Shown here: positions 20,733-30,052 of the stretch, piece by piece
Numbering within the stretch: the first letter of the stretch is position 1
Layout of the letters: every line of letters begins with the position of its first letter
Source: a phage
Length of the DNA stretch: 64,000 nucleotides
Reading direction: 5' to 3' (one strand)
Sequence record: PX880100.1
The notes under the pieces: generated by a model
The model's database searches: none
The model's input: only the letters and a program-made list of their open reading frames with translations
What the model was told of the DNA's origin: nothing
Program-made: the position numbers and the translations under genes

Positions 20733-20804
20733 GCCGTCCTAGTATAATTGGTATTATCAAGCCGTAACTGGTGGAAGATGTAGGTTCGAATCCTACGGTC
20801 GGTA
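20733..20804 (+). ncRNA. tRNA-like element (canonical T-arm, anticodon arm unresolved)
   Basis: GTAGG-TTCGAAT-CCTAC T-arm and 6/7 acceptor pairing; no clean anticodon stem. Confidence 0.3.
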
Positions 20805-21306
20805 AGAACTGGATAACTGATGCTTTTAACGTAAAAGCTTCCGAGGTTAGTTGCGCACTGCCTAAACCACGCGGTAGTTGGTTCCAGACTAACCAACCAG
20901 TCTGCTGAATAGTTTTATTACGATTTAACTATGTCCAGGCTAAAGAAGAACTTTAGAAGGTATTCTAGGATAGTGAAGTTCTTTCTCCACATCGGAGTAG
21001 TTTTTCAAGCTATCCACAAAGTGGGAAATGCTGACATGAGAGATGTCACTAATGGTGCACAATAGCACAGGTAATTCGCGATAATTCCTGTTGAGTAGCA
21101 GCAAAAGGCGGGAAGTCATGACCCCAAGCCTAACCGAGTCCTCAATATACCGCAGGACATAACCACTAAGTCACCCTGACTTAAACTGGAAAATAATAGA
21201 CGTTACTGTATTTTGTCTTGAAATACTTAATGAGTGAGACTTATGACTCTCCCGGTATCGTCTGTATTTTTAAGAGTTTTTACGAGAGTTCTTAAAAATA
21301 CTTAAA

Positions 21307-23094: not shown

Positions 23095-23172
23095 GGTTCT
23101 CAAGCTCATATGGTATGAGCACCCAGCTCATAACTGGAAGGTACGTAGGTTCGAATCCTCGGGGAGCCACCA
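23095..23172 (+). tRNA. tRNA with CAU anticodon (Met/fMet/Ile2)
   Basis: Acceptor GGTTCTC/GGGAGCC; anticodon loop CTCATAA; weak T-stem. Confidence 0.5.
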
Positions 23173-24226: not shown

Positions 24227-24502
24227 ATGCAAAATCGTGTTATAGCAACTGGTATTGAAAGTGCAATCTGTAAATCCTGGGAAGGCTGGGAAGGTGAGAT
24301 TGAATGGCTTTATTTCTATGATGTAGAACTTCTGCCGGAAGTTAAAGCTAAATGTGTTGAAGCTGGAATGGCTCCAGATGCAAAAGCTGATATTGATATT
24401 TCAATGTCTGAACTTAAAGGCCGTGTAATTACTGTTAGTGATGAGGGTGAAGAAGTTTTCGAACTTCCATTCTCCTTAACTGTCACTCCTAAGTTCGACT
24501 AA
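24227..24502 (+). CDS. hypothetical protein
   Basis: ORF track; promoter cassette and AAGGAG upstream. Confidence 0.45.
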   Translation: MQNRVIATGIESAICKSWEGWEGEIEWLYFYDVELLPEVKAKCVEAGMAPDAKADIDISMSELKGRVITVSDEGEEVFELPFSLTVTPKFD

Positions 24503-24584
24503 CTAATACAGCACTGAGCAAGTTCTTTAAAATTTGACTTGCTCAGTGCCTTAAAACTTGGTATAATAGTTATCTAATTTGGAA

Positions 24585-24634
24585 ACATATTTAAAAGTGT
24601 TTAAACTAGTATTTGAATACTTTTAAATATGTTG
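24585..24634. repeat. perfect palindrome, 15-bp arms (AACATATTTAAAAGT / ACTTTTAAATATGTT)
   Basis: Read directly; between promoter and tRNA-Tyr. Confidence 0.8.
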
Positions 24635-24735
24635 GATTAGTATCGTAGAGGTAGCGAAGCAGACTGTAAATCTGCCGACTCGGAAGGGTCTCGGGTGGTT
24701 CGACTCCATCATCCATCATCCATCATCCAACACCA
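24631..24735 (+). tRNA. tRNA-Tyr (anticodon GUA) with 14-nt heptamer expansion before the 3' acceptor strand
   Basis: Anticodon stem GCAGA/TCTGC; T-arm GGTGG-TTCGACT-CCATC; ATCCATC x2 inserted before ATCCAAC-A-CCA. Confidence 0.5.
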
Positions 24736-24742
24736 AATTTAA

Positions 24743-29968: not shown

Positions 29969-29976
29969 AATAATAA

Positions 29977-30052
29977 GCGGTTAAGCACACGGGTTGTGTC
30001 GCAGGCCTTCCAAGCCTCGCTGAGTAGGGTTCGATTCCCTCTAGCCGCTCCA
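29977..30052 (+). tRNA. tRNA-Gly (anticodon UCC)
   Basis: Acceptor GCGGTTA/TAGCCGC; loop CTTCCAA; T-loop TTCGATT; CCA. Confidence 0.55.

Follow-up and report, generated by a model that had tools for sequence, protein, structure and literature searches.

The tRNA-Tyr operon of the window

The window, by which we mean the whole 64,000-nt stretch of record PX880100.1 analysed here, belongs on its sequence to a T5-like phage (Tequintavirus). It spans the classic T5 tRNA gene region, with 24 tRNA genes, all on the + strand. One of these encodes tRNA-Tyr(GUA), complete with its CCA end, and is directly preceded by a long palindrome. Over 1 kb around the palindrome, identity to many T5-like phages (Tequintavirus/Epseptimavirus, Demerecviridae) is 95–98%, and it is highest with AKFV33 (97.6%). 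The features of the locus, and those elsewhere that touch on it, are collected in Table 1.

The tRNA-Tyr/Glu/Trp/Phe operon has an early sigma-70 promoter whose −35 element is TTGCTC; a different assignment (TTGACT) was rejected, as its spacer would be 22 nt. The same 30-nt promoter is annotated in AKFV33 and is contained in 'promoter 14a' of BF23. From the distance to the −10 element, transcription would start near 24574, with the hairpin about 10 nt further downstream. The leader so delimited consists of a single-stranded tail of about 10–13 nt (CUAAUUUGGAAAC), then the hairpin, and its last base is U(−1).

The 5′ end of tRNA-Tyr was placed by ARAGORN at 24635. Pairing of the acceptor strands (GTTGGAT/ATCCAAC, followed by discriminator A and CCA) moves it to 24631, in agreement with the alignment of relatives. 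The final GTT of the palindrome is thus the beginning of the tRNA, and the outer 3 bp (AAC/GTT) make use of its first three bases. These outer pairs exist only with a tRNA allele of the window type; where the allele starts GGG or GCA, only the C:G(+1) pair can still form.

The AAUUUGG of the leader tail (24574–24583) is complementary to CCAAAUU, formed by the CCA end and the spacer behind it (24733–24741), and the predicted 7-bp pairing displaces the acceptor stem in the minimum-free-energy fold. CCA-plus-AAUU spacers resembling that of tRNA-Tyr trail several other tRNAs of the cluster. This pairing was set aside: T5 promoters and tRNA spacers carry such motifs generically, and the match may be coincidence.

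Table 1 Features of the tRNA-Tyr locus and related elements (window positions unless a locus is named)
Feature	Position	Strand	Remarks
Region before RNA X hairpin end	about 20880–21300		about 400 nt, no convincing ORF
Hairpin at 3′ end of RNA X homologue	21263–21301	+	17 bp, AU-rich, three G.U pairs; 5 nt before tRNA-Arg (21307)
Upstream ORF	24227–24502		
Upstream hairpin	24511–24549	+	perfect 13-bp arms GCACTGAGCAAGT / ACTTGCTCAGTGC, 13-nt loop
Early sigma-70 promoter of tRNA-Tyr/Glu/Trp/Phe operon	24539–24568	+	−35 TTGCTC 24539–24544; 17-nt spacer; TGn; −10 TATAAT(A) 24562–24568 (TATAAT 24562–24567)
5′ leader of primary transcript	24574–24630	+	57 nt; start predicted from distance to −10; 3′ end at tRNA +1 boundary
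Perfect palindrome arms	24584–24598, 24619–24633		15 nt each, AACATATTTAAAAGT / ACTTTTAAATATGTT
Leader hairpin	24584–24633	+	arms 24584–24605 / 24612–24633; loop 24606–24611 (6 nt)
Part of helix wholly inside leader	24587–24630		19 bp
tRNA-Tyr(GUA)	24631–24735	+	encoded CCA
CCATCAT copies in tRNA-Tyr	24706–24712, 24713–24719, 24720–24726		three copies; one in relatives
tRNA-like match	20733–20804		35.5 bits, tRNA (Rfam)
tRNA-like match	23095–23169		38.2 bits, tRNA (Rfam)
tRNA-like match	29976–30049		30.9 bits, tRNA-Sec (Rfam)
Form-3 element, L106	533–649		
Form-3 element, L107	533–648		
Form-3 element, L108	901–1015		
Form-3 element, L109	901–1000		

The palindrome as a predicted RNA hairpin

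The perfect 15-nt arms that the first-pass annotation had described are real, although it had placed them at 24585–24634, one base too high. Among perfect inverted repeats of the hairpin type they rank first in length across the 64 kb; simulated sequences of that size (first-order Markov, 30 runs) had longest arms of 10–13 nt. If two mismatches are allowed, the palindrome extends to 22-nt arms, and both mismatches read as wobbles (G.U and U.G) on the + strand, which is the transcribed one. The long AU-rich hairpin that the annotation predicted immediately 5′ of tRNA-Tyr is supported by folding: the leader hairpin has −15.5 kcal/mol (z = −6.0) and none of 200 shuffles was as stable. Since both mismatches pair as G.U on this strand, it folds much more stably than the opposite one, which reaches −9.0 kcal/mol at best. 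The helix holds only two G-C pairs, one of them with G(+1) of the tRNA. After the stem comes GUUGGAUUAG, which contains no U-tract.

The palindrome is present once. No further copy of an arm or of the whole promoter-leader was found in the window, and the second places suggested by BLAST were the palindrome matching itself. A search of Rfam with the tRNA region of the window and the leaders of relatives (E-value and gathering thresholds) matched none of the three leader forms described below to a family; the best results at the hairpin were chance-level microRNA-like matches, with E of at least 0.4 and far under gathering scores. Rfam also gave three tRNA-like matches in the window that ARAGORN does not call (Table 1), and which, to go by their sequence, may be pseudo-tRNAs or 'tRNA-like RNAs' of the BF23 type.

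Two neighbouring features deserve description. Just past the stop codon of the upstream ORF lies a second hairpin, the second-longest perfect hairpin repeat in the window, whose 3′ arm overlaps the −35 element and spacer of the tRNA-Tyr promoter. No U-tract follows its stem. In relatives (L004, L011, L029, L047, L107), two of its pairs have changed in a compensatory manner, one from C-G to U-A and the other from A-U to G-C; the intermediates pair as G.U on the + strand. The upstream hairpin therefore looks like a selected RNA structure. On the other side, the heptamer expansion that had been reported in the adjoining tRNA-Tyr was found as described, with three CCATCAT copies in place of the single one of relatives. 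The extra 14 nt come after the T-stem and before the 3′ acceptor strand. Of 155 phage records with an alignment over this segment, none shows the expansion, and the tRNA is probably impaired. An analogous expansion, three copies of GGCGAC, occurs in the D-arm of a different tRNA-Tyr allele in L009 (IMGVR_UViG_2974499565).

Three leader forms in relatives

The leader was compared across 35 loci with the same promoter (T5-like phages, IMG/VR and metagenomes) together with further annotated records; a pattern scan of metagenomes gave chiefly chance AT-rich matches and only a few T5-like contigs. Homologues of the upstream ORF outside the T5-like phages do not adjoin a tRNA: those in Klebsiella Sugarlandvirus and Vibrio Thalassavirus have none after them, and the match in Erwinia phage KEY precedes the gene for DNA ligase subunit B, with no tRNA near. 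A more distant comparison is therefore not possible.

Among the relatives, the leader position holds one of three forms, of which the window has the shortest. Form 1, the short hairpin of the window, AKFV33, SP15 and ESCO30, accounts for 234 of 493 promoter-region records at a query coverage of at least 80%. Form 2 is an extended imperfect hairpin of about 107–112 nt, found in T5, BF23, saus132 and Th1 (155 records at the same minimum coverage). Form 3, a branched RNA of about 117 nt with three internal hairpins, occurs in HZ_ZJUN2, S124 and otherwise only a small minority of T5-like phages. Forms 1 and 2 have a common helix base, ACATAT(C/T)T ... AAATATG, outside which they are about 41% identical; their upper stems differ in sequence and both are self-complementary. 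Form 3 has no evident similarity to either. All three nevertheless have the same layout. The closing helix begins 11–14 nt into the predicted transcript, is long and AU-rich with wobble pairs (about 19–22 bp in forms 2 and 3), and stops precisely at the RNase P site, −1, where the base is U in every form.

At least six tRNA-Tyr(GUA) alleles stand behind these leaders, in several combinations. Both form 1 and form 2 are found with the window-type allele, and each also with several others. The first-pass annotation had held that absence of the palindrome from close relatives with identical tRNA-Tyr expression would refute its reading. Two relatives, saus132 (L002) and CitS1 (L100), have the same allele behind a different, longer leader. 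That leader is also a hairpin and is built on the same base. By the criterion of the annotation, this particular palindrome is dispensable, yet a self-closing leader beside the RNase P site is kept. The pattern also marks the tRNA-Tyr locus (24631–24735; L001–L107) as a hotspot of cassette exchange.

Form 3 has counterparts elsewhere. It is 80–92% identical to an unannotated element in the tRNA clusters of Stephanstirmvirinae myoviruses (about 150 records, for example Phapecoctavirus ukendt and Justusliebigvirus JohannJBalmer). The closing helix of this element has at least one compensatory change, and Rfam gives no match. From its sequence it looks like an undescribed structured RNA family common to unrelated phage families.

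Conservation and covariation of the leader

Where the upstream ORFs of two genomes agree at only about 80% of their DNA positions, identity is 93% for the promoter and 94% for leaders of the same form. For the tRNA it is 73%, owing to allele replacement. The conservation of the leader sequence could partly stem from recent recombination instead of selection. Among short-form leaders the arms hardly vary, the left one showing a single T-to-C change, at position 8. The loop, by contrast, differs both in sequence and in length, from 6 to 11 nt.

The covariation test on 14 distinct short-form variants revealed no double-sided compensatory change and gave no statistical support for pairing. Thirteen of the 22 pairs never vary and four change on one side to a wobble. 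Of the remaining five, pair 11 is an A.C mismatch in 8 of the 14 variants, single mismatches affect two more, and the outermost two fail with tRNA alleles that start GGG or GCA. Single substitutions keep the pairing in about four of seven cases, roughly the neutral expectation. The AKFV33 variant largely lacks the upper stem and folds at −7.3 kcal/mol (z = −1.7). Support for selection on structure comes from the architecture common to three different leaders and from the strand asymmetry, not from covariation statistics.

The SP15 cassette contains the hairpin

The tRNA-Tyr that T5-like phages encode has been shown to counter the retron-Eco7/PtuAB defence, an effect that relies on the expression cassette of the phage (PMC11555353). 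In SP15, a T5-like close relative, tRNA-Tyr rescues infection from retron-Eco7 and the phage "tRNA-Tyr promoter" is required (Azam et al., Nat Commun 2024, PMC11555353); the phage tRNA-Tyr is called highly expressed in that study. Besides the promoter, the cassette used there takes in the upstream hairpin and all of the leader hairpin, as far as ...CTTCTAAATAT (PMC11555353, supplementary file 3). Joined at +1 to heterologous tRNAs it yielded functional tRNAs, and joined directly to RBS-RFP with primers P223/P224 it yielded more RFP than the E. coli tyrT/tyrV promoters (PMC11555353). The authors ascribe the higher reporter output to the promoter; the hairpin goes unmentioned (PMC11555353).

The first-pass annotation was right to place the palindrome between a promoter and tRNA-Tyr: it lies in the transcribed leader, and the SP15 fragment that spans promoter and hairpin leader drives strong expression (PMC11555353). 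These fusions, which concern the variant of a relative in a plasmid context, show that the hairpin is transcribed and is compatible with accurate tRNA maturation whatever tRNA comes next.

Comparison with known RNAs

The tRNA regions of T5 and BF23 encode 'stable RNAs with unknown functions', namely RNA X, RNA 2H, RNA III, RNA I and RNA IV (NC_042564, AY692264). In BF23, RNA X (784 nt) runs from its own promoter to tRNA-Arg, RNA 2H lies between promoter P13b and tRNA-Ala, and RNA III adjoins tRNA-His; RNA 2H, RNA III and RNA IV fold with long closing helices. The tRNA-Tyr leader resembles them in strand and region, and in coming after a promoter or a tRNA and before a further tRNA, where a processing cut would set the 3′ end. 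Its hairpin is on the + strand, ends at −1 of tRNA-Tyr and has the strong structure of such RNAs (z = −6.0). It differs from them in being, in the window, a simple hairpin of about 57 nt (the annotated RNAs have 103–784 nt), and in that it is annotated as RNA in neither NC_042564 nor AY692264. We regard the leader as an unannotated and fairly ordinary addition to the structured RNAs, other than tRNAs, that the T5 tRNA region encodes. In the literature searched on T5 stable RNAs, transcriptomes and leader processing, no mention of the tRNA-Tyr leader hairpin was found.

Comparison of sequences gave no homology of the leader to the T5/BF23 stable RNAs beyond a weak post-hoc match (14/19) to a hairpin arm of RNA X. 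A motif, TATTTWWAAGWGTTTWWAC, common to the hairpin arms of tRNA-Tyr and RNA X was discarded, as it matches those two sites only and was derived from them, which makes the argument circular. The hairpin at the 3′ end of the RNA X homologue (Table 1), which is similar in kind to that of the leader, is identical in sequence in T5, and the L076 variant keeps the structure.

Other systems are similar in part. Like the leader hairpin, the RNase III sites of phages (T7 early R1–R5 and T4 species 1) are duplexes of about two turns in a phage polycistronic transcript, and T4 species 1 RNA likewise derives from a tRNA cluster. An internal loop is characteristic of the T7 sites, whereas the helix of the window is continuous and only in relatives is it interrupted, by the A.C mismatch. 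The pre-tRNA-Tyr of E. coli tyrT/tyrV also has a leader of tens of nucleotides that is removed by RNase P ahead of a class II tRNA-Tyr, but these leaders do not form long perfect hairpins next to −1. The RNA of about 117 nt from Stephanstirmvirinae (Phapecoctavirus, Justusliebigvirus) sits, in some T5-like phages, exactly at the position of the palindrome, with an AU-rich helix to −1 of tRNA-Tyr. It differs in sequence, in its branched interior with three internal hairpins and in its spread over unrelated phage families, and it is absent from the window.

Discussion

We propose that the palindrome acts at the RNA level, as the self-folding leader of the tRNA-Tyr/Glu/Trp/Phe operon, which RNase P would release as a small closed hairpin akin to the stable RNAs of T5 and BF23; we put the probability of this reading at about one half. 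Transcription from the strong early promoter would begin near 24574 and produce the short tail, after which the transcript would fold co-transcriptionally into an AU-rich helix of 19–22 bp with its last pair at −1. The cut by RNase P would fall between U(−1) at 24630 and G(+1) at 24631 and yield two products, tRNA-Tyr and a leader RNA of about 57 nt, the latter sealed at its 3′ end by a blunt helix. As an autonomous closed module, the leader would not mispair with the interchangeable tRNA downstream, and once released it would resist 3′ exonucleases, like the neighbouring stable RNAs.

Several observations count against this proposal. The expert record of BF23 (NC_042564) lists other stable RNAs but not the 101-nt tRNA-Tyr leader. 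The null covariation of the short form, the roughly 4/7 of substitutions that keep pairing and the loss of stem in AKFV33 have likewise to be counted against it. Bacterial RNase P contacts and prefers a single-stranded leader. A helix paired up to −1 should, if anything, hinder its binding, and the AU-rich base would need to breathe.

A neutral origin, in which the palindrome is a remnant of form 2 after an interior deletion, or arose in one step by template switching, and was kept through close kinship and frequent recombination, seems unlikely to us, though much of the above would fit it: the helix base common to forms 1 and 2, the missing double-sided covariation with pairing kept in 4/7 substitutions, the partial reliance of the perfect 15-bp arms on the first three bases of one tRNA allele, and the replacement of the palindrome by other leaders before the same tRNA. 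It does less well with a leader that is as conserved as the promoter and more so than the adjoining ORF, with arms that stay fixed as the loop varies, and with upper stems in forms 1 and 2 that are unlike in sequence yet each self-complementary. Form 3, which has no evident similarity to the others and still runs from a closing helix to −1, is hard to explain without selection for the layout. RNase III is a second candidate. The canonical minimum substrate of this enzyme is about two helical turns. A role for the hairpin as a processing signal, as the first-pass annotation suggested, is plausible from the sequence; with RNase III, a cut in the duplex would either separate the tRNA precursor from upstream read-through mRNA or destroy the leader, as at the T7 early sites and in T4 species 1 RNA in vitro. 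The helix, nearly without G-C pairs, offers continuous dsRNA of the required 20 bp or so (22 pairs including two G.U, 19 of them in the leader), the closing helices of forms 2 and 3 are of similar length, and read-through from an upstream promoter is possible since the upstream hairpin lacks a U-tract. Against this, the A.C mismatch interrupts the helix in most relatives, AKFV33 loses the upper stem, RNase P alone suffices for release of the tRNA, and a promoter belonging to the operon itself lies just upstream. Strong RFP expression with the hairpin as 5′ UTR neither requires nor excludes such cleavage, and no report of RNase III cleaving this hairpin, in vivo or in vitro, was found in the literature searched. 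We consider RNase III processing quite unlikely.

An element acting at the level of DNA would be an operator for a phage or host DNA-binding protein, or else a cruciform or recombination hotspot that exchanges tRNA-Tyr cassettes. The perfect dyad does lie at about +11 to +60 of a strong promoter, at a mosaic junction where leader forms and tRNA alleles reassort, and homing endonuclease genes are present in these tRNA regions. Pairing of the mismatches as G.U, though, is confined to the transcribed strand, and the other one folds much worse. Nor does the protein-binding site put forward in the first-pass annotation fare well as a dsDNA operator: the conserved outer half-sites are anywhere from 6 to about 70 nt apart among relatives, a misfit for a dimeric operator, the half-sites occur nowhere else in the window and nothing similar lies by any of its other promoters. 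Cruciform extrusion is disfavoured in T5 DNA, which is linear and nicked. A DNA-level role is improbable on this evidence. The attenuator suggested by the same annotation, or a terminator limiting tRNA-Tyr expression, can be given hardly any weight. Only position speaks for it, a stable hairpin in the nascent transcript between promoter and gene; a U-tract is missing (GUUGGAUUAG), there are only two G-C pairs, a terminator scan lists nothing at the hairpin, and the phage tRNA-Tyr is highly expressed according to Azam et al. (PMC11555353). The SP15 cassette of promoter plus hairpin gave strong RFP and functional tRNAs on a plasmid (PMC11555353), so the hairpin is neither terminator nor attenuator in that context. 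There is also a small chance that the three swappable structured leaders before the anti-defence tRNA-Tyr, one of them shared with unrelated myoviruses, are functional RNAs in themselves. Made from the same very strong promoter as the tRNA, they could serve as decoys for, or inhibitors of, a host defence or nuclease that targets RNA, and the hairpin of the window would then be a minimal dsRNA version.

By itself, the self-folding leader is one more unannotated structured RNA in a region known for stable RNAs, and it alters no major view. The swappable leaders, the hypervariable tRNA-Tyr alleles, the tandem-repeat expansions within tRNAs and the covarying hairpin over the −35 element are at least as interesting as the palindrome. 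The exchange of tRNA-Tyr cassettes fits an arms race against nucleases that target tRNA-Tyr. The cassette that Azam et al. term "the promoter" includes the hairpin leader, which affects how those experiments are read. A conserved, modular leader with three alleles bears on the design of tRNA expression cassettes, and on how phage tRNA operons are processed and exchanged.
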